A stretch of DNA of 64,000 bases, taken from the NCBI GenBank assembly GCA_963765145.1, contig CAVXVG010000005.1, positions 1-64,000 of the forward strand, given 5' to 3'. This document shows positions 3,610 through 46,269 of this stretch, one piece after another. The translations under genes and the position numbers were made by a program. Under the pieces are notes generated by a model. That model had not been told where the DNA came from and made no database searches. It worked only from the letters and a program-made list of their open reading frames with translations. This DNA is from Parachlamydiales bacterium. GTDB lineage: Bacteria > Chlamydiota > Chlamydiia > Chlamydiales > JAJFMK01. Numbering within the stretch: position 1 is the first letter of the stretch; each line of letters begins with the position of its first letter.

Positions 3610-4542
3610 ATGTCAATTTCGGAACGAGGAAGATTTCAAAATTTGGAGCATAGTGGTGGTCCAAATGGTTTTTTAGAGGTTCTTAAATGGAAGTGGTCTT
3701 CAAAAAAAGTGCCTTGGCAACATGTTGAGAACACCCATCAACCTCAGCTTCCCCTTGAGATAAAGGAGAAAGAATGTGCTGTGACCTTTATCAACCATGC
3801 CTCTTTTCTGTTGCAGTTTCAAAGTCTCAATATTTTGATCGACCCGGTTTTTTCTGAAACGTTAGGACCTTTTTCAAAACTAGGGATTAAAAGGGTGAGG
3901 TTGCCTGGCCTAACGTTTGAACAGTTGCCAAAGATAGATTTGGTGGTGATCAGCCACAACCATTATGACCACATGGATTTGCCCTCGATCGAAAAAGTGT
4001 GGGAAAGGGATCGCCCTACCTTCATTGTCCCCCTCAACAACGGAAAGTTTTTGCGAAAGGTGGGGGTGAAAGGGATCATTGAACTGGATTGGTGGGAATC
4101 GTATGGTCCTGTCACTTTAACCCCTTCCCACCATTGGTCTTCCCGCACCCTTTTTGATCGGTGTAAATCTCTTTGGGGCGGCTTTTTGTTCCAAGAAAAG
4201 GGGTGGAAAATCCTCTATGCCGGCGATGGGGGATATGCAAATGACTTCAAGAAGATCTACGAAAAATTTGGCTCACTCGATCTGTCTCTCATCTCGATAG
4301 GCTCTTATGCCCCCCGCTGGTTTATGAAAGAACACCACATGTGCCCGGAAGAGGCTTTGCAAGCACACCTCGACCTCCATTCCAAAAAAAGCATAGCTTA
4401 CCATTTTGGTACTTTCCAGCTAGCCGACGAGCCCTACCACGAACCTGCCGAGCGTCTGAAAGCCGCCCTGCAAGAGCACGGGTTATCGCCAGACACCTTC
4501 CTCGTCCCCGAGCACGGCCAAACCTTCAAGTTCTCCCTTTAG
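3610..4542 (+). CDS. MBL-fold metallo-hydrolase (RomA / NAPE-PLD-like)
   Basis: SHNHYDHMD metal motif, HHWSSR, YAGDGGY, HFGTFQL. Confidence 0.9.
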   Translation: MSISERGRFQNLEHSGGPNGFLEVLKWKWSSKKVPWQHVENTHQPQLPLEIKEKECAVTFINHASFLLQFQSLNILIDPVFSETLGPFSKLGIKRVRLPGLTFEQLPKIDLVVISHNHYDHMDLPSIEKVWERDRPTFIVPLNNGKFLRKVGVKGIIELDWWESYGPVTLTPSHHWSSRTLFDRCKSLWGGFLFQEKGWKILYAGDGGYANDFKKIYEKFGSLDLSLISIGSYAPRWFMKEHHMCPEEALQAHLDLHSKKSIAYHFGTFQLADEPYHEPAERLKAALQEHGLSPDTFLVPEHGQTFKFSL

Positions 4543-4560
4543 TTACCCTTTTTTTTGGGG
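4489..4560 (+). repeat. Direct repeat, left copy (~70 bp; second copy 5398..5467)
   Basis: CCAGACACCTTCCTCGTCCCCGAGCA(C/T)GGCCAAACCTTCAAGTT(C/T)TCCCTTTAGTTACC...TTTTGGG occurs twice with about 3 differences. Confidence 0.95.
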
Positions 4561-5328
4561 CTATGGGTAACGTTCGTTAAATGCATCGATAGCCGCATTA
4601 ATAACGCCCGTTCCAAGATCTTTAGAGTCAATAAACTTCTGTTCATTATAAAATAAACCAGACTGAATTTGTGACGCTTTGTGATTAGTTGGTTGAAGAA
4701 TTACATTTCTTCTAGGCGTCCTAAATAAACTATAATCAACTTCATCATAAGTGAAAGTGATCGAGTTTTTTTCCGTGACACGGCTCATGATTTCTTTAAT
4801 TCCTTGAGTTGCTACCAATCGGGCGTCTGAGATAGCTGCGGGGTCAACAAGCTTAACTTGTTCACCCTCTACATACTTGTTAAGAGTACCCAGACACGAC
4901 GCGTCTAAATTTCTTTTAATAAAATCATCGAATGATCCGAATTCTGTAGCTTTTGGCACAAATTTTAAGAATAAAGCCTGCATAACTTCATCTCGATTAT
5001 TAAATTTTGAGGCAATAATATCGAGTTTTTTCAAAAAGACAAAGTTGCTCCCTTGAAGGGTATTAGTTGATCTCTCTGGACTCTGGTAATCTCCCGCCAT
5101 ACCAGTTTCTATAACGTGCTTATCAGGGTTATATTTGATGTATCCTTCCGAAATCAAGAAAGTGTCAGGCAAGCCTTTAAACTCTCCCACTGCTACTTTG
5201 ATTTTTCTTGACGCAGCATCTTTCCCTACAGAATTAACTGTACTTTCCCATGCAGTCTTTAGCTTTTCTTGATTCGTGGGCAATATTGGTCGAGCATAAG
5301 AACCATCACTAGTTAATGTTAAACTCAT
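4561..5328 (-). CDS. Hypothetical protein (255 aa), AT-rich, between direct repeats
   Basis: Long ORF with GGAG RBS upstream; no recognisable motif. Confidence 0.8.
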   Translation of the reverse strand: MSLTLTSDGSYARPILPTNQEKLKTAWESTVNSVGKDAASRKIKVAVGEFKGLPDTFLISEGYIKYNPDKHVIETGMAGDYQSPERSTNTLQGSNFVFLKKLDIIASKFNNRDEVMQALFLKFVPKATEFGSFDDFIKRNLDASCLGTLNKYVEGEQVKLVDPAAISDARLVATQGIKEIMSRVTEKNSITFTYDEVDYSLFRTPRRNVILQPTNHKASQIQSGLFYNEQKFIDSKDLGTGVINAAIDAFNERYP

Positions 5329-5397
5329 AATAAAAACTCCAATCTTCTATTTTTCATATTAAAGTGAACTATATTTAATAGTAAAGAGTAGGGTGCC

Positions 5398-5467
5398 CCA
5401 GACACCTTCCTCGTCCCCGAGCATGGCCAAACCTTCAAGTTTTCCCTTTAGTTACCTTTTTTTTGGG
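5398..5467 (+). repeat. Direct repeat, right copy; contains the stop codon of the antitoxin gene
   Basis: Near-identical to 4489..4560. Confidence 0.95.
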
Positions 5468-5893
5468 TTTTGCTTTTTCAGGTGTGGAAAGAAAGACACG
5501 ATAATCTGTTTTTAGGACTGTCGCTAATTTTTTTGCCGTTTTTTCACCAACAGGCCTTTTTCCATTTTCCATCTTGGAAATATTGTCTTGTGAAATGTTG
5601 GTAAGGGCGGATAATTCTTTTTGGGAAAGGCTTTCACGAAAGCGCGCTCCTCTTAGTGCCAAACCTGCTTTTGTATGTTTCTCAATACGGTCTTTGGCAA
5701 CCTCTTCCCAGGGCTTAGCCTCATCCCATGACTTTCTTGCGTCTTCTAAATGATCTAAAAAGGATTTTAGGCTTTCTTTAGTTGCCTTGTCGTTTGGTAC
5801 TTGGTAAAGGATTTGTTTGTTTCCGGGGATCCCAATCGTTATCTGTATAGTACTTTGAGTACTAGTATGGCGCTGCCTCATGTGTCCCGACAT
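5435..5893 (-). CDS. XRE-family HTH protein, probable HigA-like antitoxin
   Basis: LRGAR.RESLSQKELSALTNISQDNISKMENGKRPVG is an HTH_3-type helix-turn-helix; overlaps the upstream toxin-like ORF. Confidence 0.85.
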   Translation of the reverse strand: MSGHMRQRHTSTQSTIQITIGIPGNKQILYQVPNDKATKESLKSFLDHLEDARKSWDEAKPWEEVAKDRIEKHTKAGLALRGARFRESLSQKELSALTNISQDNISKMENGKRPVGEKTAKKLATVLKTDYRVFLSTPEKAKPKKKVTKGKT

Positions 5894-6164
5894 AAAAAAC
5901 CTCTATTTCTTTCCGATTGGTACTTACAACTCTCCAGCAAGCAACAAATGTTGGCTTGCCCCGTTTGAGATGGCAATGGTAGGTGTCTTTTGACAGTTTC
6001 CCATAGTGAGGCCATGCAATTCTTTCAGGGCCGCTTATCTCCATCTCAATGATCAAAAAATCTACTAAATCAGTAATGGAAGGTTTTGTCCTGCCATTTT
6101 TTTTTAGTTTTTCATACTGCTTTTCAGCTTTGTTGGATAAACGAATGTGCCAACGTTCGCCCAT
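5862..6164 (-). CDS. RelE/HigB-like toxin (probable start MGERW at 6164)
   Basis: ~100 aa basic protein, W.I.LS.KAEK start, WPHYGKL, YHCHLK.GKPTFVACW, EVFYVGTHE; toxin-first order. Confidence 0.7.
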   Translation of the reverse strand: MGERWHIRLSNKAEKQYEKLKKNGRTKPSITDLVDFLIIEMEISGPERIAWPHYGKLSKDTYHCHLKRGKPTFVACWRVVSTNRKEIEVFYVGTHEAAPY

Positions 6165-6186
6165 TTCAATCTCTTGGGTAGCATAC

Positions 6187-6206
6187 AATTTGACATATGT
6201 CAAATT
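6187..6206. promoter_or_regulatory. Perfect 20-bp palindrome AATTTGACATATGTCAAATT, candidate TA operator
   Basis: About 20 bp upstream of the toxin start; contains TTGACA on both strands. Confidence 0.65.
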
Positions 6207-6222
6207 AATGAGCAAGGCCAAA

Positions 6223-17602: not shown

Positions 17603-17670
17603 AGGAGAAATTGTATCGCAAGCAAACGAAAAATAACAGAGTGAACAGAATGCACGGACAGAAGCATCAA

Positions 17671-17840: not shown

Positions 17841-17861
17841 TTGGTGTGATGAGCGGAATCG

Positions 17862-19479: not shown

Positions 19480-19556
19480 TGAAAAGGCCCGGCTCTTTTA
19501 AGTCGTAGCGTAGTTTGATATACTTAGGCCTTAACTGCGCTGAGGTAAATTAGAAA

Positions 19557-20498: not shown

Positions 20499-20542
20499 TA
20501 AGAGCGTGGCCCTAAGCTACGTTTTTAGATAAACAAGGAAAA

Positions 20543-20592
20543 ATTCGAACTAAAAAAAACGCACTTCGTGCGTTTTATCATGAGCAGGCCCT
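20543..20592 (+). repeat. Direct repeat, left copy (50 bp, hairpin core; second copy 22298..22347)
   Basis: ATTCGAAC.AAAA.AAACGCAC(TTC/GAA)GTGCGTTTTATCA.GAGCAGGC.CT. Confidence 0.9.
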
Positions 20593-22062
20593 TTAGGACT
20601 TGAACCGTTCTTCTACCTGTTCCTTATAGGTGTCGCCGGCCTCAATTTTTTTCAAGACCGGAAGGTTTCTGATCAGTGAGTCTTCCTCAAGCAGGGTCTG
20701 GATGAATGCTTCCCTTTCTTCGTCTGTTTTAAGAGAGGAAAAATGGTTGTTTAACCAGGTGACAGCGCGGTCTACCAGGGTGGGCGCTTGGAAGTAATCT
20801 GCCGTCGCAATGATGTCGATCGCGTTGTTTACATCTGTAAATTCCAAAAAGGGATCAGCAAGATATCTAAGAAGATCTAGGACAGCATCGGCAGAGACGT
20901 CTTGTAGAGGCAATGCTTGCATAGTTCCCGAAAAATAGGTAGAAAAATAATTTGAATTGTCGGCAAGCAGTTTTTGATCAGCGCCAAAAAGGGAGGCTAT
21001 CTCTGTTTCCCCTTCCAATGTGCACTCAATTGTTCGCTCTTCTTTCGTCAGCTCGTCCCAGGTGATCTCTTTTGAACCATTGAGAAGTGCTAATGCCATT
21101 GCGGGAGACAATACAGCCTCTTTTCCTTCATTCGCAATTATTAGCAACTTCCATTCATCTGCTCCTGTTTTTGACCATTGATGGAGGGCTTTAGCGATCA
21201 ACAGCCTGGGATCTTTCACCTCTTTTTCGTCCAAATCTCGGGCAGCAACTTTGAACAGCTCCAGCGTAGCCCTTGGAGACAGCTTGAATAAGGAGTTTTG
21301 AGGTGGATTGAAGCCTTTATCTAATTCTGGGAACAGCTCTTTCGTAGCTCTTGGAGACAACTCGGACAAGATGTCTTGAGGTGGGTTGAAACCTTTATCT
21401 AATTGATCTAATAAGGATGCTAGTTGGACGATGTGGCGAGCATGATCGCGATTTCTGACATTCTTCAATTGAGAGTTAGCAGCTTTCAGTACATCATTCC
21501 TTTGTTCCTTGGGAATGCCTAGAATTGCGTCTATAATATAAGATATGTGTTCACGGCTATTCTTAAAGTCAAAATAGGGAGCCGTCATCGTAAGAACAGA
21601 CGCGAGTTCATCCTCAGGTATTTTTTCCAGAAGCAAATATTCCATATAATGAGACGCTACTTGTTGAGCTATAAGGCTCATACAAACCCTATTTGCAGCC
21701 AGTACGACTTCTTTGTTTAAACTAGTTTCGGGGATTCGCAATAAACACCTCCTCAAAATTGAAGCATGATAAAAGTCTTGAAAAGGCAGGCCAAGCGAGT
21801 TCATGAATATTTTCATGGAGACGCCTTCAACGTTGGTTTTTCCAGCCTCTTCCTCAGAATTACGATTAAAAACAATCTCTCCTATTGTTCTTAAAAAACT
21901 CTGTGGGAGGGGCTGAGGGATATTGACCTCATTGCTGTTGGGAGTGATGACTGCGCTAGATAATGCCTTGATGCGTGTTAGAAGATCCCCTTCTCCTCTC
22001 AAATAGGAAGTAGGATTATGAATGAATTGCTGGATGTTTGGATTGGAAAAATCAATCGTCAT
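20593..22062 (-). CDS. BTB/POZ domain protein, candidate secreted effector (probable start MTIDFS)
   Basis: C-terminal LLADNSNYFSTYFSG..Q..LQDVS....DLLRYL.....N..II..ADYFQ...L...A..WL matches the BTB consensus; GGAGGTG RBS. Confidence 0.8.
   Translation of the reverse strand: MTIDFSNPNIQQFIHNPTSYLRGEGDLLTRIKALSSAVITPNSNEVNIPQPLPQSFLRTIGEIVFNRNSEEEAGKTNVEGVSMKIFMNSLGLPFQDFYHASILRRCLLRIPETSLNKEVVLAANRVCMSLIAQQVASHYMEYLLLEKIPEDELASVLTMTAPYFDFKNSREHISYIIDAILGIPKEQRNDVLKAANSQLKNVRNRDHARHIVQLASLLDQLDKGFNPPQDILSELSPRATKELFPELDKGFNPPQNSLFKLSPRATLELFKVAARDLDEKEVKDPRLLIAKALHQWSKTGADEWKLLIIANEGKEAVLSPAMALALLNGSKEITWDELTKEERTIECTLEGETEIASLFGADQKLLADNSNYFSTYFSGTMQALPLQDVSADAVLDLLRYLADPFLEFTDVNNAIDIIATADYFQAPTLVDRAVTWLNNHFSSLKTDEEREAFIQTLLEEDSLIRNLPVLKKIEAGDTYKEQVEERFKS
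21253..21404. repeat. 78-bp in-frame tandem duplication within the BTB gene
   Basis: Encodes LDKGFNPPQ..L..LSPRAT.ELF twice. Confidence 0.9.
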
Positions 22063-22297
22063 GATCACCTCCACGGTCATCATCCTAAAAGTAGTTCCTT
22101 TCTATTAAGAGGGTATTGATCCACTATTTAAAGTGTATAAAGGCGGTATAGCCCATCAATATAGCTTTAAACTTTCAATAGGTTGTAAATAAGATAGTTA
22201 CATTCTAAAGGAAGCCGGCCAGGCGATTATAAGCCACTGCCAAAAGCCCCTCCCTGACCGGAAGTTGCGAAGCAACGATGAGAAGATGCAGAGAAAG

Positions 22298-22361
22298 ATT
22301 CGAACCAAAAGAAACGCACGAAGTGCGTTTTATCAGGAGCAGGCACTCCAAACGCGCTGCG
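22298..22361 (+). repeat. Direct repeat, right copy, fused to an orphan family-A right end (CACTCCAAACGCGCTGCG)
   Basis: Matches 20543..20592. Confidence 0.85.
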
Positions 22362-25438: not shown

Positions 25439-26768
25439 GGTTTATGACAAACCGCTTCCACGGTATACAAGCTATCCTACAGCGCCTCTGTGGTATTCCC
25501 TTGCCGAAGCAGATTATGTAGAACATCTGTCCCGCATCGAGGGGCAGTCGGTCAGCGTCTACATCCATGTCCCCTTTTGCCATTCGATGTGTCTCTATTG
25601 CGGCTGTTCAGTGGTGCTCAACAGAAAACGGGAAAATGAAGAGCGGTATGTCGCAGCATTGCAAAAAGAAATACGCCTTCTCCCTTTCAAGAAGAAAGAG
25701 GTGACGCAGCTTCACTTTGGGGGAGGGACTCCCACAAAATTGACTGTAGAAGATTTTCAGGCACTTTTCGAAACATTGCAAGAACGGTTTGTCTTTTCTA
25801 AGAATGCAGAAATTGCCATTGAAATTGACCCCAGGACCGTTTTTGGCGATGGGGGAGAAAAGTTAAGAGGCTTGAAGCGAGTCGGTTTTAACCGTGTTAG
25901 CTTTGGCGTGCAAGATACCGATCAACAGGTCCAAGAAGCGGTTAAACGTCGGCAAACAAGGGAAATGACAGAAGAAACTTTCCACAAAGCGCGTGAAATT
26001 GGTTTTGAGGGGGGCATTAACATCGACCTGATCTATGGATTGCCTTATCAGACCGAACAGACGTTTAGGCAAACGGCAGAAGAGATTGTCACCTTAGGGC
26101 CCGATCGGATTGCCCTGTTTTCCTATGCTAAAGTCCCTTGGTTAAAAGCCCACCAAAAAGCGATTAAAGATGAAACCTTACCTACAACGGAAGAGAAATT
26201 TCACCTTTATATTGCTGCTAGAGAAACATTTTTGGCGGCAGGCTATGTGGCTTTGGGGATGGACCATTTTGCAAAAAAGGGAGATTCGCTCTCTTTAGGG
26301 ATTGCCAATGGGACGTTGGGACGTAATTTTCAAGGTTATACGGTGAAAGCTTCTCCGTTATTAATTCCTCTTGGTCTTACGGCTGTCGGCGATTTAGGCT
26401 CCGGCTATTTCCAAAACGAAAAAGAATTAGACGATTATTATGGGGCGCTGGAACAAAACAGACTGCCGATTCATCGAGGAATGATTTTGAAGCCGGAAGA
26501 TCAATTGAGAAGGTATGTGATTCACACCTTGATGTGCCGTTTCAAACTGGATAAAAAGGAATTCGAATTGCTTTATCATGAGCAGTTTGATGTCCACTTT
26601 GCAAAAGAGGTGCAGGTGCTTCAACCTTTTATCGATAATGGCTTTGTGATCGACACATCAAACGAGCTACAGATCGTTGCCAACGGGCAGTTATTTGTCA
26701 GAAATATTGTGTCTGTTTTCGACGAATACCTCCCTTCCCAAAAACACCATTTTTCCAAAGCTGTCTAG
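25413..26768 (+). CDS. hemN: Oxygen-independent coproporphyrinogen III oxidase
   Basis: PRYTSYPTA, radical SAM CHSMCLYCGC, GGGTP, GMDHF, RNFQGY. Confidence 0.96.
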   Translation: MSNLLTDLKVYDKPLPRYTSYPTAPLWYSLAEADYVEHLSRIEGQSVSVYIHVPFCHSMCLYCGCSVVLNRKRENEERYVAALQKEIRLLPFKKKEVTQLHFGGGTPTKLTVEDFQALFETLQERFVFSKNAEIAIEIDPRTVFGDGGEKLRGLKRVGFNRVSFGVQDTDQQVQEAVKRRQTREMTEETFHKAREIGFEGGINIDLIYGLPYQTEQTFRQTAEEIVTLGPDRIALFSYAKVPWLKAHQKAIKDETLPTTEEKFHLYIAARETFLAAGYVALGMDHFAKKGDSLSLGIANGTLGRNFQGYTVKASPLLIPLGLTAVGDLGSGYFQNEKELDDYYGALEQNRLPIHRGMILKPEDQLRRYVIHTLMCRFKLDKKEFELLYHEQFDVHFAKEVQVLQPFIDNGFVIDTSNELQIVANGQLFVRNIVSVFDEYLPSQKHHFSKAV

Positions 26769-27071: not shown

Positions 27072-27134
27072 ATGTGGAGATGGCTACGATGAAGTGTTGA
27101 AGTGAGGGTAGAATGAAACGTTCGTTATTGGCTT
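27072..27134 (+). repeat. Direct repeat, left copy: relic of the upstream region and first codons of the TPR gene (second copy 29010..29072)
   Basis: ATGTGGAG.TGGCTACGATGA...TTGA.GTGA...ATGAAACGTTCGTTATTGGCTT present at both sites. Confidence 0.92.
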
Positions 27135-28269: not shown

Positions 28270-28395
28270 ATTTACCGATTCCTAATCCTTATGCAACAAT
28301 TTTACCAATGCAATTAATTAATTTAATTAGGAGAGGGTTAATTTTTGATTAATAGCTTTTTCGTTAAAACCCCATGTTTCCAAAGCTGTTTAATT

Positions 28396-29009: not shown

Positions 29010-29072
29010 ATGTGGAGGTGGCTACGATGAGAGATTGAGGTGAAAACATGATGAAACGTTCGTTATTGGCTT
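29010..29072 (+). repeat. Direct repeat, right (functional) copy overlapping the start of the TPR gene
   Basis: Matches 27072..27134. Confidence 0.92.
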
Positions 29073-29866: not shown

Positions 29867-29926
29867 ACTGAAAGTTGAAAATTAAAGGGGTCCTCCCTAG
29901 AGTTCAAGAAAAGATAGAGATCATCC

Positions 29927-33051: not shown

Positions 33052-33054
33052 CAA

Positions 33055-33477
33055 CGCAACGCGTTTGGAGTGCTAAACGGCCTTGTTGCATAATTCAATT
33101 TCTAATTAAAAAATGTAGCTCCAGGCTTTAGAAGTACTTGCAAAAATCGGATTGTTGGCTTTTTTTTAGAAACAGGTCCGAAGACCGAAATATGAAAGCC
33201 CAGCGCCGAAGGCCTGGGTTACAAATGTGAAATAAAATTGGAGTCCTGAAAGGACGGCATAAAATATCTCCTGTAGTGTTTGTGGAACAGGATATGTCGT
33301 CCCTTCAGGACTCCAATTTCTATTGGCATACTTACCCTGGCCTTCGACCAGGGCTTTCATATTTCGGCCCTTCGGGCCTGTTTCTGAGCTTAATCTGATT
33401 TTTGCAAGTGCCTCTAAAGTCTAAGCTACAATATTTGTCCAAATTAAGATTAATTATGCGCTCCAAACGCTAGCGCG
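33055..33477. mobile_element. Family-A nested element carrying a ~317-bp inner MITE-like unit (33114..33430)
   Basis: Layers: CGCAACGCGTTTGGAG > GGCCTTGTTGCATAATT > TGTAGCT > CTTGCAAAAATC > REP-like hairpins, mirrored on the right. Confidence 0.88.
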
Positions 33478-35691: not shown

Positions 35692-38600
35692 ATGAGTACA
35701 GTTGGCGGCGGCAATGCAAGCTATGGTGATATTGAGAATTTTTATGGGCAATGGAAGGCCAACTTGTCTACAGATATGAAAGAACAGGCGGCTTTCGCAG
35801 CTTTAAGCGACGATGATAAAACCATTGTTTTATTAGCATTTAAGTCTCTGTCAAAGAGAAACATTGAAGGCAATTTAGGGACTATTAGATCCGATACATC
35901 GGAGCCTGAAACTGATGCCCCTGATAATATCTCCTTACATTCCATTGAGAGTATTGGAACTGATGGTAGCTCTATGTATTCCTACGCAAGTGGTGATAGT
36001 AATGACAGTGATTATAGTGATGATGATGGCCCTTTTTACAGGTTGCTTTCCTTTGTAGCTGACGATGGAGATGATAGCTCCCTCACCTCAAATGATAGCT
36101 CTGTAGATTTTGGCCACACAGGCAACATTGTAACGAAGGAAGATTTGGATGGCGTTCTAAGTAAGTTGAAAAGTAATAAGCGTTTAAATTTTGAAAATCG
36201 TAAAGAAGTCTCTCGAGACATCACCAAGGCTGTCGACCAGAGTTACAGAAATATCATGCGGGTTGCAGGACACCTTCCCACAGACAGTGAGAGGAAATAT
36301 GCAGCTGGCTATACAGAAGCAAAATTTAAAAGTATTTACAAACAGCGGGCCGCCTTGCAGGAGGCGTTTGAAGGCGATTTTGTAGGTCAGATGATGGAGG
36401 GGATTGATGTCCCCACTGAAGGTCTACTTTCTTCTAAACCTCTCTATGACAATTTAAAAGCTTGGGCAGAGAAGAACATTAAGAGTGGAGATTTTCAAAA
36501 AGCTGCGCTCAAAATTATTAAAGACTTGAAGGAGCACGAAACCGAATTTACGAAGGGAAAAGTTCAAGATAGTAATTTGCGAAATCAAGTTGAGGTATTT
36601 AAGGATAGGCTCACCTTGGCTTTTATCGAATTAAACCCGCAACTAACACCAGAAGATATTAAAAAACTAAATCGGTTCGGTTTGAAAGGAACAAGCCAGC
36701 AACAGGTGATACGAGATTGTTTTATCGATTTAGGGAAAGTCTTTATTTGGCCCCTCCAAAAAGCCTTTGAGGTGCTTAAACCGGGTGAAGTGAGGGACGA
36801 AGCGGTATCTGCCATTCGGTCCGGGTTTATGAAGCTGATTATTGACCCCGATAAAGGAAATCGGTTGATTGCGACCTTTAAGGAGATATTTACCCAGATT
36901 ACAAAAGCCCCATTAGAGTCGATGGGGGCAGTGGGTCGTATGAAAGGGCCTTTCGCCGCGATTGCTAATAGGCCTGAAAACGTCGTGTTTCAAGAAATCA
37001 ATAAGTTGGAGGCCCAGGTAGTCGAAGAGCGGGCAGAGATAGATAAAGTGATTAATGACGGGCTGACACTGGAAGGAGGCATTCCGGAAGCGCAAAGAGA
37101 GACCCTTTTAGAAAAGATCGCGGTTTACCATGAAAACTGCCAGTTATTGCTGGCTATGATGGAGCTAAAGGAAAGCCTTTTTGTAAAAGGGTACGTTCTT
37201 CTTCCCCACTTGGCAGCTGGTCACGGTAAGGAGATACACGCTCAAGCAAATGTCTTGATGAACCATGTAGCCTTTGCTGTCGATATGAGGGGTGTTCTAG
37301 AGCATGCCGATCAAGTCGCAGTCAGGATGGAAGAAAAAGGGATCAGCGCTCAAAATGCCTACTTATCTTTGGTCAAAGGCACTCCTCCGAAAGAGGGAGA
37401 GACCATTGAGTTGTCTCAGGAAAGAGTAGAAGTTGAAGCCGAAGCTGCAGAAAAGTTGGAGAGGGCAGGCAATTGGTTGCAGTATGCCCGCTCGAGAGGA
37501 GATCTGTCTGCACCCATTTATTTGGCTGACTTGATTTGTACTTCAGATCGAAAAGCTTGGTCTCCGGAAAATGCCGATCGCACCTTTGCAACAGCGCAGA
37601 TGTTGTTAAACGAGTCTTTCAAAGGGGGAGACTATGAACGTCGAGCAGATGCCGAGACAGCGATGAGATCTTTGCTCCGGCTCCGTTTTGAGGCTTCTGT
37701 TCGAAATGATCGGCCTATGGCGGAGCAGACCTATAATGCCCATGAGCTCATCAAAGGGATGAAGTATGTCAACTCGGTCACCCGCTTCCCAACAACTGCA
37801 GCTAGAGAAACAGCTTTAAGAAATCAGCTGTTAGGTTTGGTTCTATTAGGCTCGCAAGAGGCCGGACAAGTTATTCTCGACCAAATTGACCAGCATGCCA
37901 AAAAAGGGCGTGTAACCGCAGGTGATGTTTTGGTGCTTTCAGAATTGGCAGCCGAGGGGTTTCCCGGCGCAAAAGAGAGGTTGCAAAATGTTACGCAAAT
38001 GAAATCCTTTCTGGATAAGGTTGAAAAAGATGCTAAAAAAGAGATACTAACTTCTGAAGCCTTCAGAGCTTTAGCCAGTCTGGCAGCCCACGGAAATGTG
38101 AAGGCAAGATCTGTTCTTGGTGATCTTAATAAGGGAGACTCAGGCTTTCTTGGGGTATTTGGTCGTTCATATCCTCCAACAGAAGATGAAGATTTTTTGG
38201 ATATGGCCATTTCCAACTGGGCGATGTCTATTGCCGCCGGGAGCTCATTAACACAAATTCCATCCATGCAATACGACCACGTGAAAGGCTTTAAAGAGTT
38301 TTATGATCGGTATGCCCTGTCGCCTATCCAAATAGACTTCAACATTCCTCCTTTCAAGGGAGTAGAAGTAGACCTTGAAGCGATATCAGACCGGGCAGCT
38401 AAAGGGAAGCTAACTGAAAAAGATGTCAATAACTTGGTTTTAGCCATTGGCAGCGGAAATCGCGAGGCTATCCTCACCTTAGACGATGCTATCGTCAAGA
38501 TGGCTGCTAGGCATAGTGAAATCCAAAAATCCAAAAATCCGAATGAAGTATTGAAATTTGCAAAGTGGGCTTTAGGGCAGGCCAAGAGCCCCGATGGTTT

Positions 38601-39381
38601 GCAGCGTCCTCTTGCAGATCAGGCTGACAATATCAAGGAAAGATACAATAAATTGTTCCCATCAGTGTTCGCGGAACAAATCCCAGCTCAACAGGTTCAA
38701 CCAGAAGTTCCATCATCGGAAACGGAAGCTGAAACGATTAGCCAAGGATCGATCGACGATAGTCTTTTGGATTCAGATTTAAACGATTTTGGACCTCCTC
38801 AAGCACCTATGGAGCCTTTTTCGTTGCAACAGACTCTGATTGCAGCAATTGAACGTGTAAATGAAAAAGTAGAGATAGAGGTAGAGAGCGAGTATGAGGT
38901 TGCCCCAGCTGCAGCTACCGCGTCCCCAGCCGCAACTGTTACTGAAGTTCCTCCCCTGTCAGACACTGAATTTTTGTTTAAAAAAATGAACGAGGGGGGG
39001 CAAGTGGAAAGCGAAGCATTTTTCACTGAGATGGGGCGTCGTTTTGAAAGAGGAGTCGTTTCTTGGGTGGATTTAAAATTCCTAACGAACTCTCTTCTAA
39101 GCAGTGAGAATAAAGTTAAGGCAGATAACCTTTTAAGAATAATTGCAAATGCAAAAACAGAAGGAACCGACGACTACGCAGCCATTGCGAATTTAAACAT
39201 GGGTGAAAAATGGGCTGCCGATGTGTTGTTAAATGAAATCAATACATCGCTTAAGCCTCCCTCAGATCCCTTGGGGGAAAACTCATTGTTATCAGGTCAG
39301 CCTAAGGCTATCTCTACCTTCAAGATAAATTGGCAGTTTTGGAAAAAGAGTTCGAAAGGCACACAGGGAGAATCTCTATGA
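35692..39381 (+). CDS. Large hypothetical protein (1229 aa), Ser/Asp-rich N-terminus, Sel1-like motifs; candidate effector
   Basis: Long ORF with GGGAG RBS; repeated AA.G...A...L motifs. Confidence 0.85.
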   Translation: MSTVGGGNASYGDIENFYGQWKANLSTDMKEQAAFAALSDDDKTIVLLAFKSLSKRNIEGNLGTIRSDTSEPETDAPDNISLHSIESIGTDGSSMYSYASGDSNDSDYSDDDGPFYRLLSFVADDGDDSSLTSNDSSVDFGHTGNIVTKEDLDGVLSKLKSNKRLNFENRKEVSRDITKAVDQSYRNIMRVAGHLPTDSERKYAAGYTEAKFKSIYKQRAALQEAFEGDFVGQMMEGIDVPTEGLLSSKPLYDNLKAWAEKNIKSGDFQKAALKIIKDLKEHETEFTKGKVQDSNLRNQVEVFKDRLTLAFIELNPQLTPEDIKKLNRFGLKGTSQQQVIRDCFIDLGKVFIWPLQKAFEVLKPGEVRDEAVSAIRSGFMKLIIDPDKGNRLIATFKEIFTQITKAPLESMGAVGRMKGPFAAIANRPENVVFQEINKLEAQVVEERAEIDKVINDGLTLEGGIPEAQRETLLEKIAVYHENCQLLLAMMELKESLFVKGYVLLPHLAAGHGKEIHAQANVLMNHVAFAVDMRGVLEHADQVAVRMEEKGISAQNAYLSLVKGTPPKEGETIELSQERVEVEAEAAEKLERAGNWLQYARSRGDLSAPIYLADLICTSDRKAWSPENADRTFATAQMLLNESFKGGDYERRADAETAMRSLLRLRFEASVRNDRPMAEQTYNAHELIKGMKYVNSVTRFPTTAARETALRNQLLGLVLLGSQEAGQVILDQIDQHAKKGRVTAGDVLVLSELAAEGFPGAKERLQNVTQMKSFLDKVEKDAKKEILTSEAFRALASLAAHGNVKARSVLGDLNKGDSGFLGVFGRSYPPTEDEDFLDMAISNWAMSIAAGSSLTQIPSMQYDHVKGFKEFYDRYALSPIQIDFNIPPFKGVEVDLEAISDRAAKGKLTEKDVNNLVLAIGSGNREAILTLDDAIVKMAARHSEIQKSKNPNEVLKFAKWALGQAKSPDGLQRPLADQADNIKERYNKLFPSVFAEQIPAQQVQPEVPSSETEAETISQGSIDDSLLDSDLNDFGPPQAPMEPFSLQQTLIAAIERVNEKVEIEVESEYEVAPAAATASPAATVTEVPPLSDTEFLFKKMNEGGQVESEAFFTEMGRRFERGVVSWVDLKFLTNSLLSSENKVKADNLLRIIANAKTEGTDDYAAIANLNMGEKWAADVLLNEINTSLKPPSDPLGENSLLSGQPKAISTFKINWQFWKKSSKGTQGESL

Positions 39382-41915
39382 CAACACGTTCAGGTGATTT
39401 AAGTTTTGGGCAAGCTCGCGATGTCTATTCTGCATTTTATACTGCAGGCCATGCAGATGGAAAATCGGAAGCGAAAGTGTTTGGAGAGCTGTCGCTAGAT
39501 GAGCGTAAGGTGATTGTCCGTGCCATCGAAGTGTTAGGAGGAAGAAAAGGTACCGCCGGAAGTTCTCTTGTGTCAGACGATCGATTAACACCTCTAATTA
39601 AAAAATTAGGAGGCGATAACGTGACGACCATTGATGATAAAGACTTACCAAATGCTCTAAAAGGTAGTAAACCCATCCTTGTCCAAGGGCGGGCTGAAAT
39701 AGGGATGGCCAACCGCTTCTTAGTACACGATAAATTTTTAAAAGCTCTTGAGCCAGACGGAGAACTTTATCAAAAGCTTGAAGGGTTTTTTAATAATCCT
39801 CACGCATCGCAAAAAACATTGGTGAACAGGGCCGTAAAAGAATGGGTGGAGAATTTACCTCCCGGAGAAGGGAAAGCGGCGGCTAAAGAAGCTTTGCAAT
39901 ACCTAGAAGCAAGTATCAACAATTTTTCTTCTGCGCATGGCTTTACCCCAGAGAATTTAAAGAAGGTCATTGGCGATTTTAGAGAAAATATTCACAAAGA
40001 ACTTGTGCTTGCATGGGGTGCAACACCTTTAACAAAAGCAGACCATCAAGCGATGGGGATTGGCGCTTTGGATCTGCTGCCATTTTCTATCAACAAAACC
40101 ACCATCAAACAAAAACGGGCAGAGTTTGAGAGCATTGTTGACGATCTTAGGGATCCTAAGAAAAGCAAGGAAGGGCTTGAGGAAAGGCTGTCGCAACTTG
40201 AGGGCGAGCTGTTGCCAATGGTCCGCTATCCGGAATGTGCCGGTCTTTATTCACGTGTTGTAGGTGAGCATGTAAATCTCTTAAGAGAAAGCAGGGATCC
40301 AGAGGTTGAAGATCGGGCGATTGAGCTTACGAAAATTCAGTATATTTATGCCATGTACGCCGCTGCAAAGGGAAATGGAGAGGGGGCGTATAGCTTTGCT
40401 AGAGGGTTTGTCGAGTTTGGGTTGTGGACTAAAGATGAGAGGGAAAATACCCTAAAAGAGGGTTTGCGTTTAGTTGACTTAGCCATTAATGCGGCCAAGA
40501 AAAGCGGAGATAAAGGGTTGCTCGCGAAAGCCAATGTTCTAAGAGCTGTTCTTTTAGAAAAAAATTACCTGACTTTACTTGAGCTAAGAAATGAGTTTGA
40601 GGAACCGAGAAGTGTAAAAAAAGCGGAAAAATATGTCATAGACAACTTTGTTAAATTGGGTTTTGATGGCATTGAGGGGCTTTATATTTTGTTTGTCAGG
40701 GGTGGATCTTCTGCCGACCCGATGATCGACCTGCTGAAGAGGTTCCTGGTAGGCCCATTCAAGGTAAAGCCAACAGCAGAACATGTTAAGTGGATCACCA
40801 CCGCAGCCTTAGCCGGCAATGAGAAGGCTATAAAGCTTTTAACCAAGCTTGTTGAACTTTATCCTGCAGAAACCAAAAAAGTTCCTGCCCTTATCCCGGC
40901 CGCGCTGTTAGTAAAGGATGGGGTCCATACCAATGCAAACGTTAGTGAATTTACACGAATAGACGCTTTGAAATGTTACCAAGAGGCCTTTGACCATTTG
41001 GCAAACGAACTTAGGGAATTAAAGAATTCCGGACAGTTAAATCGAGCTACACTTGATGCGATTTTGCCAAGATTAGAGGTATTACGTGGCAAGTATGAGG
41101 CGCTTCTTAGGCAATTCCCGGATAAGACTCTTACACAGTCAGCAATGCAGTTAAGAAAGGACATAAACACTGCAATCGAAGAAATCAAAGAGGCTGAAGT
41201 TGGAGTTTTGGAGGAAGCGCCAGTCCCGGGCATAGCTAAGCACATGGACTTAGGCTCGCCAAAAGTTGCTCCATCTCGTAATAGGTTTTTCAGTGCCGTC
41301 AGCAAGTTTTTTAATGAATGGGTCATGCCCAAGTCTGAAATTCTGAAGTTCAGGGAACCTGCAGGAAGCCCTGAGCCGATAGATCCCCAGTTGACAGCTG
41401 CCGATTTTCATAAGTCGAAAGATGAAGATTTAACGAAAACCGAACCCTCTTTGTTAACTACCACCATCTACGACATCGATGCCCTAGAAATAAGTGATTC
41501 ATTCATCGACCGCATAGGTGGTTCTTTAACTCCAATTCCTGCGCCAGCTAAAAAAGCAGCTCCTGTGATTTCAGCGGTTGAAGTCGGTGACGAAGCTACT
41601 CAAGGTGTCGTCAATGTGTTTGGGGAATTTTGGGATGCAGCAGATGGAAAAGTTCACTTGAAAGGATTTCTTTCCATGGCAGGGCAAGACGAATTTGATA
41701 AGGGGAATTTTAATCAAAAGCAAATAGAAGCTGCAAAGAAGACCGAGTTCATGGCTCAAATAGCCAAATTAAAAGAGCTGGGTGAAAAAGAACAACCTAT
41801 CGCTATTCGGTTGATGGCCGATAAAATGGGCAATGCCAAATATGTTAATTCCCTAACCAAGCTTATTGAAGATGATAGATTTGAAGCAGTCCAAAAACTC
41901 CTTTCCGCTCAGTAA
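39378..41915 (+). CDS. Large hypothetical protein, paralogue of the upstream gene (probable start MTTRSG)
   Basis: ATGA overlap at 39378-39381 with GGGAG RBS; colinear similarity to 35692..39381. Confidence 0.85.
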   Translation: MTTRSGDLSFGQARDVYSAFYTAGHADGKSEAKVFGELSLDERKVIVRAIEVLGGRKGTAGSSLVSDDRLTPLIKKLGGDNVTTIDDKDLPNALKGSKPILVQGRAEIGMANRFLVHDKFLKALEPDGELYQKLEGFFNNPHASQKTLVNRAVKEWVENLPPGEGKAAAKEALQYLEASINNFSSAHGFTPENLKKVIGDFRENIHKELVLAWGATPLTKADHQAMGIGALDLLPFSINKTTIKQKRAEFESIVDDLRDPKKSKEGLEERLSQLEGELLPMVRYPECAGLYSRVVGEHVNLLRESRDPEVEDRAIELTKIQYIYAMYAAAKGNGEGAYSFARGFVEFGLWTKDERENTLKEGLRLVDLAINAAKKSGDKGLLAKANVLRAVLLEKNYLTLLELRNEFEEPRSVKKAEKYVIDNFVKLGFDGIEGLYILFVRGGSSADPMIDLLKRFLVGPFKVKPTAEHVKWITTAALAGNEKAIKLLTKLVELYPAETKKVPALIPAALLVKDGVHTNANVSEFTRIDALKCYQEAFDHLANELRELKNSGQLNRATLDAILPRLEVLRGKYEALLRQFPDKTLTQSAMQLRKDINTAIEEIKEAEVGVLEEAPVPGIAKHMDLGSPKVAPSRNRFFSAVSKFFNEWVMPKSEILKFREPAGSPEPIDPQLTAADFHKSKDEDLTKTEPSLLTTTIYDIDALEISDSFIDRIGGSLTPIPAPAKKAAPVISAVEVGDEATQGVVNVFGEFWDAADGKVHLKGFLSMAGQDEFDKGNFNQKQIEAAKKTEFMAQIAKLKELGEKEQPIAIRLMADKMGNAKYVNSLTKLIEDDRFEAVQKLLSAQ

Positions 41916-41938
41916 GCCACACCTTGTTGCATACTAAA

Positions 41939-42255
41939 TGTAGCTTAGACTAAAGAGCCACTTGCAAAAATCAGATTAAGCTCAGAAACAGGCCCGAAGG
42001 GCCGAAATATGAAAGCCCTGGTCGAAGGCCAGGGTAAGTATGCCAATAGAAATTGGAGTCCTGAAGGGACGACATATCCTGTTCCACAAACACTACAGGA
42101 GATATTTTATGCCGTCCTTTCAGGACTCCAATTTTATTTCACATTTGTAACCCAGGCCTTCGGCGCTGGGCTTTCATATTTCGGTCCTTCGGACCTGTTT
42201 CTAAAAAAAAGCCAACAATCCGATTTTTGCAAGTACTTCTAAAGTCTAAGCTACA
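41939..42255. mobile_element. MITE-like unit, near-identical inverted copy of 33114..33430
   Basis: TGTAGCTTAGAC / GTCTAAGCTACA ends; interior is the reverse complement of the 33.1-kb copy; CCTTGTTGCATA relic at 41922. Confidence 0.92.
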
Positions 42256-42292
42256 TTTTTTGTTCTCTGTGCTATCTGTGGTCGCGGAATCA

Positions 42293-43704: not shown

Positions 43705-43816
43705 ATCGTTAAAGATTCTTCCTCATTCCCACTAAACAGGCAATCCAAAAAATAACCAGATGGCTAAGTATATTTGCATGAATCAAAGACATTCTTGTTG
43801 TGACGCCAGAAAAAAA

Positions 43817-43980
43817 TAACAGGGTGAACAGGATGAACAGGATAAGCTCTGCCCACAAAGGAAATGTTTTTTTAAACAAATGGAAAGAATGGCTTCGCCT
43901 CTGCTTTTACCATTTTGAAATAGAGAGGCAGAGTTTATCCTGTTTACCCTGTTAAATTTTTAGGATGCTTTTTCCTAGGT
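43817..43980. repeat. Family-D palindrome
   Basis: TAACAGGGTGAACAGGATGAACAGGATAAGCTCTGCC / GGCAGAGTTTATCCTGTTTACCCTGTTA. Confidence 0.88.
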
Positions 43981-44031
43981 AATGCCGCTAGCGCGGACTG
44001 CTTATTTTTGTTTGGATGTGGGTATGGTTCT
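43899..44031 (+). repeat. Direct repeat, left copy: right arm of a family-D element plus a diverged relic of the recF 3' end (second copy 46124..46269)
   Basis: Colinear match including TAGGATGCTTTTTCCTAGGTAATGC..CTAGCGCGGACTG.TTATTTT. Confidence 0.9.
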
Positions 44032-45441
44032 TTAATCTGGAAATAAGGCGAGGACTAGATGTCTTTTATCCAAAGTCGTCGGAAGTGGTAGCAGATTAAT
44101 ATCAGTTTTAATGTAGTAGAGTTCTTTTAGTCGTTTATAAAGCATGTTGATGAATTGTCTTAAGAGATAAAATTCCGGCATGAACATCTGATATTGGCGA
44201 ATGGCTAACTGGGCGCTAGTGATCTGATCAATAGACTTAATCTGTTTCAATTTCTCTAATAGCTGAGGAAGCTTTTCTTTTGAAAACCGATAAGGGATGT
44301 CGGCAAAGGATTCATCCATCATTTGGTGAAAGGGAAACTTGAGAAACTTTTCTAGGCGGACTTCCAAATCTTTAGCGAAACTTAAAAACAGTTGATAACA
44401 CTCTTTGTAAACTTTTGCGTGTTGAGTCATTTTATGTTCAACTTGATCTTGAATCGTTTCAATTCCATCAACACAATCATCCACCGGATAGAGATCGCCT
44501 AAAAGGTGGCTTACAGTTTTCTCAAAGTCGTCATTGAGTTCAAAGTCCATAAAAAAGTTTCCTTGTCGAAAAGCATTCAAAATCTCAATCACCCCCTTCC
44601 AGTCTTGCCCAAAGTGAGGTGGGCTGCGCAGAATGGGAGCGATAAAAGCTGGCAATAATGGCTCTATTTGGATTAAGCAATTGCGAAAAAGTACTGTCTT
44701 AGTTATTTCAGAACTATTTTGGAGCCCGGGAATTACTGAACGGATTGCAATAATTGCTTGGAGTATTCTATTCCAGGTAGGGGCTGTTTTTGGCAATTTG
44801 CCGATGATAACTTGCAATTCTTTTTGTTTTTTTAATTCATAGTTTTTTTTGTTTTTTACCTGTGTTGCTATGAGTATCCCTGCTGCGGCAAAATGGTCAA
44901 GCGCAGTCATCAAGCTTCTTTTAGAGTATCCTATTTCAACGAGGTCGGCGGCTGAAAAATACTTCCCTTTTCGTGCGAGAAAGTGTGTCAAGATGTCAGC
45001 TTTTGCCCCAGGGCCAAATAAGCTTCGTGTTCGAAGCGCTAGAAGGGAGGGAGATTCAAGCGGCGGAAGCAAAGATTTTCCGCTCAAGTGAACTTTAAAT
45101 TGAACTGTCTCTTCTGCGCTCGGCCACTTTGCTGATGATATCGAATTTAAAGCTGCAGCAAATTGTGAGAAAGAGCGCATTGCATCATTATTCAATCCTT
45201 TTAGAAGCGCGCGTAGCCGACTGACCGAAACATACTCATGGTAGCGAGAGAGCCAATCTAAGGCTTCATCGCGTAGGCGAGGGTCATATTCTGAGACAAC
45301 TGTAGTCAAAATAATCAACTCTTCTGGTGGGATTAGGCAGTTCTCGTGAAAGCGGTCGATTCCGGCTACCCCCAATTCTTTCCACAAGCTCCATGCAAGT
45401 CCAGCAAGCAGGTGATCAAACTCTTCCTTCATTTCCACCAT
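44032..45441 (-). CDS. Winged-HTH-containing partner of the DUF6036-like protein, with a C-terminal helical extension
   Basis: AWSLW.ELGV, DPRL.DEALDW; wHTH-like FSAADLVEIGYSKRSLMTALDHFAAAGIL; starts 1 bp after the upstream stop. Confidence 0.75.
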   Translation of the reverse strand: MVEMKEEFDHLLAGLAWSLWKELGVAGIDRFHENCLIPPEELIILTTVVSEYDPRLRDEALDWLSRYHEYVSVSRLRALLKGLNNDAMRSFSQFAAALNSISSAKWPSAEETVQFKVHLSGKSLLPPLESPSLLALRTRSLFGPGAKADILTHFLARKGKYFSAADLVEIGYSKRSLMTALDHFAAAGILIATQVKNKKNYELKKQKELQVIIGKLPKTAPTWNRILQAIIAIRSVIPGLQNSSEITKTVLFRNCLIQIEPLLPAFIAPILRSPPHFGQDWKGVIEILNAFRQGNFFMDFELNDDFEKTVSHLLGDLYPVDDCVDGIETIQDQVEHKMTQHAKVYKECYQLFLSFAKDLEVRLEKFLKFPFHQMMDESFADIPYRFSKEKLPQLLEKLKQIKSIDQITSAQLAIRQYQMFMPEFYLLRQFINMLYKRLKELYYIKTDINLLPLPTTLDKRHLVLALFPD

Positions 45442-45442
45442 T

Positions 45443-45997
45443 TTATTCTCCGAGTTGTAGTAATGCTTCAGCTAAAGTTCTCGCAAATTCTTCTGATACG
45501 TCATGCGTTTTACACCAAAAGCCCGCTTTTAAAAGCTCTTCGCTTGTGGGGTGTAATCGCTTTAAATCTTCGAAATGCTTGGAGCCGGGGCCTTGATCGA
45601 CTGAGGCATAGAGTTTAAAACAAATCTGATCAAACCGGCTTGCGCAGAAGAGGGTTAGTCCACCGAAGTGGATGGGTTCTAAGCGCTTTTGAAATCCTTC
45701 TGGTAGTCCCATTTCCCATAAATCGGCTGCTGTGGAATTGATCCAGTCTTCAGGCAGCTTAAGTGCCGTTCCAACTTCTCTAATTGCTGCAAGAAGTGGA
45801 GCTGGTAAGGGTCTGGCTGAAATGAGCTCGTTTCCATCGATCATGGCAACAACATCTACATCTTTTGTAGGTCGAATGACGCATCCCAATAATAATAAGG
45901 CGCCTCCACCAATGGCGACTATTTCATATTTCAATCCTTTATCTGACAAATAGGAGCCTAATACCTCTAAGGCATCATTTAATGTATTTGAATCCAT
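45443..45997 (-). CDS. DUF6036-like nucleotidyltransferase (probable start MDSNTL)
   Basis: IGGGALLL...RPTKDVD, LPEDWIN, LPEGF..RL, KLYA. Confidence 0.8.
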   Translation of the reverse strand: MDSNTLNDALEVLGSYLSDKGLKYEIVAIGGGALLLLGCVIRPTKDVDVVAMIDGNELISARPLPAPLLAAIREVGTALKLPEDWINSTAADLWEMGLPEGFQKRLEPIHFGGLTLFCASRFDQICFKLYASVDQGPGSKHFEDLKRLHPTSEELLKAGFWCKTHDVSEEFARTLAEALLQLGE

Positions 45998-46123
45998 AAT
46001 GCTCCAGATCGAGAAGTTTAACATCTCAATTCGACATCTTAATCTTACCAAAAAGTGAATTAAAATGGTAATGCGGCTTGCTTTAGCCAATACCAACTAT
46101 GGTTTGGGGGAAGCCTTTTTTGT

Positions 46124-46269
46124 CTCTGTTTCTACCGTTTTGAAACAGAGATAGGCGGAGCTTATCCTATTGATCCTGTTCACCCTGTTAAATTTCTAGG
46201 ATGCTTTTTTCCTAGGTAATGCATGCTAGCGCGGACTGTTTATTTTCTTTCTAATTTCGGTGTGGTGGG
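46124..46269 (+). repeat. Direct repeat, right copy: half family-D element plus the functional recF 3' end
   Basis: Matches 43899..44031. Confidence 0.9.

Follow-up and report, generated by a model that had tools for sequence, protein, structure and literature searches.

How do unrelated accessory genes come to lie between long direct repeats that differ from one site to the next? The question is raised by a window of 64,000 nucleotides (contig CAVXVG010000005.1 of a Parachlamydiales bacterium, assembly GCA_963765145.1), in which four passengers, all on the minus strand as a preliminary description had stated, are each enclosed by such a pair. That description invoked a polar, sequence-independent insertion process that creates long duplications, leaves the flanking host genes intact and places the passenger's stop codon at the repeat edge. 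Its observation of the repeats is partly confirmed here and its interpretation partly supported: the four pairs belong to a genus-wide pattern, found in this genome (G000) and in the sister species G001. The features of the four loci are the following.

4489..4559, no strand: locus 1 left repeat, 96% identical to the right copy; last 54 bp of a metallo-beta-lactamase-fold gene (3610-4542, plus strand) and 17 bp more
4561..5328, minus strand: passenger 1, 255 aa, without a match in family searches; stop 1 bp off the repeat
5398..5467, no strand: locus 1 right repeat, including the last 33 bp of an HTH gene (5435-5893, minus strand)
20538..20592, no strand: locus 2 left repeat, with a 9-bp hairpin (fold z -2.7), 85% identical to the right copy
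20593..22083, minus strand: passenger 2, 496 aa, BTB/POZ protein (Pfam PF00651); stop 0 bp from the repeat
22293..22347, no strand: locus 2 right repeat, upstream of tkt, its hairpin loop inverted relative to the left copy
26741..26767, no strand: hemN 3' end, left copy of a second locus 3 pair (27 bp, 89%, by BLAST)
27072..27134, no strand: locus 3 left repeat, a decayed copy (81%) of the TPR gene's upstream region and first codons
27133..28269, minus strand: passenger 3, 378 aa, DUF7790; stop overlaps the repeat by 2 bp
28366..28392, no strand: decayed copy of the hemN 3' end, right partner of 26741-26767
29010..29072, no strand: locus 3 right repeat, the true start of the TPR gene (29048-29866, plus strand)
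43899..44008, no strand: locus 4 left repeat core, with a weak extension to 44028, 81% identical to the right copy; right half of a palindromic MITE (about 43817-43954) and a decayed recF 3' end
44032..45441, minus strand: passenger 4a, 469 aa, full length against its homologues
45443..45997, minus strand: passenger 4b, DUF6036 nucleotidyltransferase-like (Pfam PF19502), counted from the ATG of an ORF open to 46096
46006..46071, minus strand: predicted passenger 4 promoter (-35/-10) and palindromic operator, inside the cassette, from an alignment of 12 upstream regions, positions hand-counted
46124..46246, no strand: locus 4 right repeat core, with a weak extension to 46266; the true recF 3' end
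46226-47254, minus strand: recF, its 3' end within the locus 4 right repeat

By BLAST the four pairs are real, with 81-96% identity between copies, and, as first described, they do not match one another when each left copy is searched against both genomes. In these searches pairs 1 and 3 occur in two copies only, as does pair 4 outside its MITE portion, and pair 2 matches, beyond its two sites, just its own hairpin. An assembly artefact is ruled out by the 4-19% difference between copies and by a record (L267, 98.6% identical) that spans the left junction of locus 4. Four sequencing runs aligned to 19500-30000 contain relatives mostly 90-99% alike; none of the listed pieces bridges a cassette, coverage of the passengers is slight or nil, and these reads carry no weight in what follows. 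The runs listed include none of RNA. None of the five passenger proteins was recognised by Pfam or NCBIfam as the product of a mobility gene, Rfam gave no match at the four repeats, and none of the eight PF00589 integrase matches of G000 falls on contig C5.

The recF end and the TPR start are among the host sequences found in the repeats, but the remainder of pair 4 is half of a multi-copy palindromic MITE (74 BLAST matches, fold z -5.0), and the HTH gene to the right of locus 1, taken as 'host', is accessory too, being the antitoxin-like partner of 5862-6221 in a putative toxin-antitoxin pair. G001 and G002 do not align at the site of pair 2, and a single-copy host origin of that repeat is therefore putative. 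At locus 3, the second pair (26741-26767/28366-28392), overlooked in the preliminary description, suggests that the duplicated unit was probably the whole interval from the hemN end to the TPR start, about 400 bp, and 28366..28392 is likely the true inner right edge of the cassette. The middles of the two presumed unit copies align poorly, and the unit was probably invaded later by different MITEs. The last codons of passenger 3 match a REP/MITE of the same genome (27131-27156 against 33388-33413, 92%). Truncation at the junction is possible for this passenger; it is rejected for passenger 4a, which is full length against its homologues, and for passenger 1, whose homologue P0004 (84% identical) also has 255 aa, placing the passenger 1 stop at its native position. 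As for the cargo, passenger 2 is a candidate host-directed effector with three paralogues in tandem on contig C29, each adjoining a copy of one shared host gene end, and passengers 4a and 4b appear to form a toxin-antitoxin-like pair.

Comparison with G001 gave the expected empty site at locus 4, where a single recF end is present and the flanks lie 232 bp apart, but not elsewhere: the whole block between the metallo-beta-lactamase-fold gene and 10580, including the accessory HTH gene, is absent at locus 1, other cargo occupies locus 2, and the hemN site of locus 3 holds a different passenger within a different repeat. The two genomes share 76% DNA identity, at which non-coding single-copy targets are unreadable base by base. 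These sites bear on the view that the repeats are eroded tandem gene duplications instead of insertion scars. Such an origin would suit the 14 of 113 pairs with inner ORFs that enclose a paralogue of a flanking gene, and the locus 3 duplication that was formerly longer than it appears; yet none of the four window passengers is paralogous to its flanking genes, and the empty recF site and the other cargo at hemN exclude it for loci 3 and 4. As a general account, we give it very little credence.

A census of both genomes (G000 85% and G001 94% complete) extends the pattern beyond the window. Low-copy pairs 0.2-12 kb apart are mostly direct, with 72 direct against 5 inverted in the window's genome and 44 against 9 in G001, and the direct pairs of the former fall to 1 at 48-96 kb, which rules out chance pairing. 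Non-redundant cassettes number 94 (57 and 37 in the two genomes), with a median repeat of 76 bp (25-371) and a median insert of 2.4 kb; some pairs are 98-99.7% identical, and some repeats are entirely non-coding. A detectable repeat accompanies only 18 of 401 variable intervals. Outer repeat edges lie inside a host ORF in 84 of 187 cases, and cassettes with both flanks collinear in the other genome face an empty site in 5 of 23 cases and other DNA in the remaining 18. The edges within ORFs, the empty sites and the reuse of the same intergenic sites by other passengers in G001 uphold the proposal of a sequence-independent insertion in which a long stretch of the target is duplicated and the host genes stay intact. 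REP/MITE words show no excess at cassette edges (0-2 per edge class against 8-19% of non-coding positions), a weak test, as the low-copy filter discards high-copy cases by design. Long duplications around short inserts amount to five candidates per genome, only one of them with a fully high-copy insert.

This footprint is not new and is already in the literature. Insertion with long target duplication was described by Furuta, Abe and Kobayashi in 2010 (PMC2853133), following an earlier report by Nobusato et al. (2000, Gene 259:99). In the accessible part of the 2010 paper, the class comprises gene-sized inserts that carry no mobility gene and are bounded by direct repeats which are long, variable and otherwise unique (from >30 to >400 bp), often over a host start or stop site, with the target gene intact and an empty site in a relative (PMC2853133). 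The window's pairs combine repeats >30 bp with inserts <20 kb (cores 55-123 bp, inserts 0.8-2.1 kb). The 2010 study screened by restriction and modification cargo (PMC2853133), and the accessible part of PMC3457768 has the mode cover other DNAs too. In contrast, the window's cargo is a BTB protein, a DUF7790 protein, a DUF6036 pair and an orphan, with no match to restriction-modification families and nothing significant in PADLOC. The high density (57 and 37 cassettes) also sets these genomes apart, as does a partial excess of stop codons at the edge, unmentioned in the available part of PMC2853133. Our literature search, whose coverage leaves out most subscription journals and supplements, found no chlamydial report and no stop-codon rule.

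Which process could leave such a footprint? Insertion sequences had been set aside for their short target duplications. This holds for the other multi-copy elements of these genomes, whose exact duplications do not exceed 10 bp, so transposition here does not in general leave long duplications; the exception is IS1549/IS1634, with published duplications of 8-514 bp for which no model is given (PMC2266710). G001 carries an intact IS1634 (NF033559, 340 bits), which has inverted ends and is flanked by a perfect duplication of 75 bp from a gene end, as well as a decayed one inside a 320-bp pair, and the family is above cut-off in 47 of 301 genomes of the phylum. A transposase of this type acting in trans might insert passenger DNA and produce long, variable duplications like those of the cassettes. 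However, the cassettes have no ends in common and no dominant terminal dinucleotide, and 92 of the 94 inserts lack terminal inverted repeats (one of the two exceptions is an IS1634, and neither lies in the window). No IS1634 transposase was found in the four window cassettes, and G000, 85% complete, has only fragments below cut-off. The 13-bp end motif of the element is absent from G000 and occurs at one other place in G001, and none of four copies from other chlamydial genomes has a long duplication within about 500 bp. We consider this origin quite improbable.

Integrative elements (attL/attR) likewise duplicate and restore the 3' end of a host gene on insertion, and some relatives have stacked cassettes beside tRNA-like sequence. 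Unlike these elements and integron cassettes, however, the window cassettes have no integrase and no fixed att core or attC, and the repeat differs at each site. Homology-facilitated illegitimate recombination resembles the pattern as an enzyme-independent uptake of foreign genes beside host sequence, but usually deletes target DNA instead of duplicating it.

The most distinctive claim, a stop codon within 0-3 bp of the repeat edge in all four cassettes, holds at loci 1-3 (+1, 0 and -2 bp); at locus 4 BLAST puts the distance at 23 bp, and 3 bp is reached only when looser scoring extends the left copy to 44028. As a rule it fails in the census, where, of 89 edges that face the 3' end of a passenger, only 8 are no more than 3 bp from the stop and the median distance is 66 bp. 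Polarity relative to replication is likewise absent, with 33 lagging and 32 leading among 65 single-strand cassettes with callable skew. Flush stops are in modest excess (8 in -3..+3 against 13 in 4-30 bp; p 0.005-0.05 depending on the bin), with p 0.09-0.26 when this window is left out. Among the eight is a doubtful G001 pair at 1897364 (27 bp, AT-rich, with neighbours that look paralogous); a flush stop at G001 597111 was dropped as a spurious alignment. Later trimming of 3' flanks is not supported, since the distance to the stop is uncorrelated with the age of the repeat (Spearman 0.04). In an ortholog-anchored set, 5' flanks are at least 53 bp in 16 of 16 cases, and 3' flanks are <30 bp in 8 of 20, one of the 20 being spurious.

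Could translation termination itself set the junction, either through transcripts cut or trimmed and then reverse-transcribed, or through R-loop breaks after the stop? The flush edges point that way, as do native-length flush stops in passenger 1 and in a G001 AlbA-type gene, and repeats that start 1-7 bp past the stop in 5 of 14 passenger 4 homologues. Yet 81 of 89 edges are not flush, there is no strand bias, several passenger 4 loci are not independent, having a repeat family in common, and a second passenger family has repeats at 2 of 16 loci, with stop distances of 59 and 202 bp. Moreover, the predicted -35/-10 and operator are kept within the cassette in passenger 4, the one passenger examined for this, and in its homologues, and a promoter that travels with the gene argues against RNA capture. 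RVT_1 has no match in G001 (94% complete), and its sole match in G000 is a group II intron maturase. Such a termination-linked mechanism is highly improbable; that a subset of insertions arose by an undescribed polar capture, in which the translation end sets the 3' junction and the whole gene enters with its promoter and a flush stop, strikes us as a long shot. On present numbers, the flush-stop excess is a minor signal of uncertain standing.

Homologues of passenger 4 occupy unrelated sites with unrelated repeats, and direct repeats flank 14 of 42 chlamydial-type loci (inverted, 1 of 42) and 9 of 31 other loci (inverted, 0 of 31). In the record L203, copies of one repeat are stacked around the homologues, as might follow from single-crossover integration of a circle, whereby a relative's fragment carrying the passenger and a piece of neighbouring host gene recombines into the matching sequence and leaves direct repeats. 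The conserved host gene ends in many repeats (the 84 of 187 edges above) would serve as anchors, and the reuse of intergenic sites in G001 also fits. Set against this are the unrelated sites and repeats of one passenger's homologues, the need for a non-homologous step in the first capture at each site, the wholly non-coding repeats and the pairs of 98-99.7% identity, and we hold this route to be unlikely.

The reading that we favour, with somewhat better than even confidence, is that the cassettes are insertions with long duplication of the landing site, arising from ordinary repair of breaks or forks and not from a dedicated mobile element. A gene with its promoter, on a loose piece of DNA, would be joined to a broken or stalled chromosome end; the other end of the piece would re-engage the chromosome 25-400 bp short of that first joint, and the intervening stretch would thus be copied twice. 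Selection would retain insertions whose duplicate rebuilds the end, promoter or terminator of a host gene, and one of the two repeat copies would then decay. This mechanism, which we infer from sequence comparison, is consistent with the excess of direct over inverted pairs, the near-absence of terminal inverted repeats, the lack of strand bias, the promoter inside the cassette, the outer edges within host ORFs, the empty sites, the different cargo at hemN, the direct repeats around passenger 4 homologues and the tandem BTB paralogues on C29. Counting against it are the small share of variable intervals with a repeat (18 of 401), the 18 of 23 comparable sites that are filled with other DNA, and the local spike of flush stops. 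The shorter 3' flanks may follow from selection as well, because the 5' flank must keep the promoter while the 3' flank can end at the stop, and the flush stops of this window, taken together, would mark the extreme of that spread; however, selection does not obviously yield flush-stop precision. Once in place, the repeats would permit loss or tandem amplification of the passenger by homologous recombination, and excision between them is plausible.

The pattern matches a known insertion class, here with non-restriction cargo, in an uncultured chlamydia-like bacterium and its sister species. The published footprint, drawn mostly from restriction-modification genes, comes without a tested mechanism in the accessible parts of the sources consulted, and this genus, with 94 scorable cassettes, site reuse and a resident IS1634, is a good test bed for the arrival of genes, candidate BTB effectors and toxin-antitoxin-like pairs among them, without a mobile element. 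Were a large sample to confirm the excess of flush stops, this would suggest that translation and DNA capture are connected, and polar capture, if true, would be a main route by which chlamydiae of the environment acquire and reassort genes for effectors and defence with no mobile element involved.

The four repeat pairs of the preliminary description were confirmed close to their reported positions, with copies 81-96% identical. Each cassette holds accessory genes (passengers) between two direct copies of local host DNA, and repetitive families lie around them:

4489-4559 and 5398-5467, locus 1; minus-strand orphan gene, 255 aa (passenger 1)
20538-20592 and 22293-22347, locus 2; minus-strand BTB/POZ gene (passenger 2)
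27072-27134 and 29010-29072, locus 3; minus-strand DUF7790 gene (passenger 3)
43899-44008 and 46124-46246, locus 4; minus-strand genes for a 469-aa protein (passenger 4a) and a DUF6036 protein (4b)
33111-33438, 41936-42263, 28400-28760, 56281-56668, 17629-17853 and 43806-43954, REP/MITE families

Divergence between the copies exceeds what duplication during assembly would leave, and a 98.6% identical record (L267) spanning 43811-45835 reproduces the left junction of locus 4; both contradict the earlier concern that the repeats are assembly artefacts. Pair 4 comprises the recF end plus half of a palindromic MITE. At locus 3, a second pair copies the hemN 3' end (26741-26767 and 28366-28392), and the duplicated unit probably extended from the hemN end as far as the TPR gene start, the middles of the two copies now aligning poorly. 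In the hairpin of pair 2 (20556-20576, 22312-22331), the 3-base loop is inverted between copies.

Some of the window's REP/MITE families reach ~290 copies in the genome, and Rfam Acido-Lenti-1 matches at 33335-33379 and 41990-42034 lie barely at the cut-off. Additionally, the window carries five tandem porin-like genes of the Legionella-OMP family (PF05150; 51390-59215), one copy of which (56737-57946) is broken into two ORFs, two large fast-evolving genes (35692-41915; 1229 and 861 aa) lacking a Pfam match and 33-42% identical to their counterparts in the sister genome G001, and a 307-aa zinc-finger-like ORF with repeated CxxC motifs and a weak DUF7573 match (62888-63811).

The window covers the first 64 kb of contig C5 of its genome (G000; 2.68 Mb, 37 contigs, 85% complete); gene content and the records carrying passenger-4 homologues suggest an environmental chlamydia. 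G000 was compared mainly with G001, of the same genus (one contig, 2.635 Mb; median orthologue identity 81%). High-copy repeats make up ~13% of non-coding DNA in G000 vs 5% in G001. Genome-wide self-alignment, proposed from the window, was run on both genomes, retaining low-copy pairs 25-400 bp long in which one or both copies included non-coding sequence, and found a direct excess: pairs 0.2-12 kb apart were direct in 72 cases against 5 inverted in G000, and in 44 against 9 in G001, with a single direct pair per genome at 48-96 kb spacing. Locus 4, excluded by the low-copy filter, was added by hand to the 116 direct pairs, and removal of 4 without an inner ORF, 14 with a neighbour's paralogue inside and 5 with a common copy left 94 cassettes (57 in G000, 37 in G001), with noise in all census counts from the simple ORF caller. 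Their median repeat is 76 bp (range 25-371) and their median insert 2.4 kb. In a second, independent count anchored on orthologues, 18 of the 401 variable intervals had direct repeats (one case proved spurious on re-check), against no inverted repeats and 0 of 600 shuffled pairs; the 18 include 6 of 129 intervals empty in the other genome. The direct-repeat pattern is thus genome-wide and beyond chance, and detectable scars are a minority of gene-content differences.

The preliminary description had every passenger stop codon at the inner edge of the left copy. This holds at three loci (+1, 0 and -2 bp), but at locus 4 the distance is 23 bp by BLAST, and 3 bp only with a weak extension to 44028 accepted. 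The stops of passengers 1 and 4a occupy native positions, flush with the repeat; the C-terminal end of passenger 3 consists of MITE-derived codons. As a general rule the claim fails, with only 8 of 89 inner edges facing a passenger 3' end (one case doubtful) lying within 3 bp of the stop (median distance 66 bp), against 0 of 99 edges facing a 5' end that lie within 3 bp of a start. Enrichment over neighbouring bins (p 0.05, 0.016, 0.005) weakens without the window's own cases (p 0.26, 0.17, 0.09), and stop-to-edge distance is independent of repeat identity. Strict polarity is reduced to a modest, uncertain excess. Replication-relative strand, which had also been proposed for checking, is even (33 lagging, 32 leading), so the window's four minus-strand passengers reflect chance. 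A polar route linked to translation, to which the flush stops would point, is decidedly improbable; within cassette 4, a predicted -35/-10 promoter and operator are conserved across most of the 12 upstream regions compared by alignment, which favours a DNA intermediate over an mRNA one.

Among homologues of passenger 4a, 152 loci were retrieved, and the 73 distinct ones with enough flank were crudely sorted into 42 chlamydial and 31 others. Direct repeats surround 14 of the 42 and 9 of the 31 (inverted, 1 and 0), the nearest repeat in the 14 lying -61, -7, 1, 3, 4, 7, 7, 35, 53, 86, 578, 1051, 2044 and 2244 bp from the stop; loci L195, L198 and L203 share one common repeat family and are not independent. 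For an AlbA-type passenger family, repeats occur in 2 of the best 16 loci, at 59 and 202 bp, with flanks of only ~700 bp. Short 3' flanks recur but are not the rule. Passenger-4 homologues in L176, L195, L198, L203 and L207 sit amid stacked copies of a common ~85-bp repeat, with at least four partial copies in L203, resembling a small cassette array, and tRNA-like sequence nearby in L198 and L207. Furthermore, passenger 2 has a tandem pair of BTB paralogues (G000:C29:23207-29764) in which each stop lies within 0-2 bp of a degenerate copy of the adjacent host gene 3' end; this looks like amplification through repeats.

The empty sites expected in relatives were found in part: of the 23 cassettes with both flanks collinear between the genomes, 5 correspond to empty sites and 18 to sites occupied by other DNA. 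The G001 interval from the aroG-like gene to recF is 232 bp, without the passenger and with a different MITE; the whole accessory block downstream of the MBL gene is absent; other genes lie upstream of tkt; and the hemN-TPR interval holds an unrelated plus-strand gene bracketed by two 56-bp repeats of the G001 hemN end. The same insertion sites have thus taken up different cargo, and the boundaries differ as well. That the repeats are eroded tandem duplications, a reading suited to the once longer duplication at locus 3, is highly improbable beside these empty and refilled sites.

Enzyme searches, proposed when none was visible in the window, returned a group II intron reverse transcriptase/maturase just outside it (G000:C5:69842-71158; the only RVT_1 match in G000, with none in G001), and Y1 transposases and tyrosine recombinases, all matches lying outside the window. 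A ~1.7-kb multi-copy IS-like element (G000:C29:27663-29353; copies on C18, C27 and C29, >99% identical) has ends within G000's most abundant short repeat. Inverted ends mark 2 of the 94 inserts, one being an intact IS1634 (G001:C1:535934-537731; L067) with 13-14 bp inverted ends, lying between two identical 75-bp copies of the 3' end of a gene; PMC2266710 reports target duplications of 8-514 bp for IS1549/IS1634 and offers no model. IS1634 acting in trans is improbable. Matches above the family threshold occur in 47 of 301 genomes of the phylum, but G000 has only fragments, and long duplications were absent near 4 of 4 copies checked in other chlamydial genomes. Duplications at other multi-copy IS in G000 and G001 are ≤10 bp.

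Across the census, inserts sit between unique, variable, mutually unrelated duplications without shared ends or strand bias, and host ends fall inside the repeat at 84 of 187 outer edges. Integration of circles is an unlikely origin of the repeats. We infer instead repair-type joining: a DNA fragment would be joined to the chromosome at a break or stalled fork, synthesis would restart upstream of the initial joint and so copy the intervening stretch twice, and selection would retain events that restore host ends and keep a promoter.

The long-duplication insertion footprint is real, and its kind is already in print. Nobusato 2000 is reportedly also cited for insertion with long target duplication. 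This class was defined by Furuta, Abe and Kobayashi 2010, who describe repeats of 44 to >400 bp, often spanning a start or stop site and leaving the target intact (PMC2853133). A literature search, with supplements outside its scope, found no chlamydial census or stop-codon rule. BTB proteins belong to the expanded ubiquitination-related families of chlamydiae and act as effectors. The expansion of ubiquitination-related families in chlamydiae is the subject of PMC4209131. Strict polarity would have been the new element and is now a modest, uncertain excess; the cassettes are of a known kind, notable here for their density and cargo.
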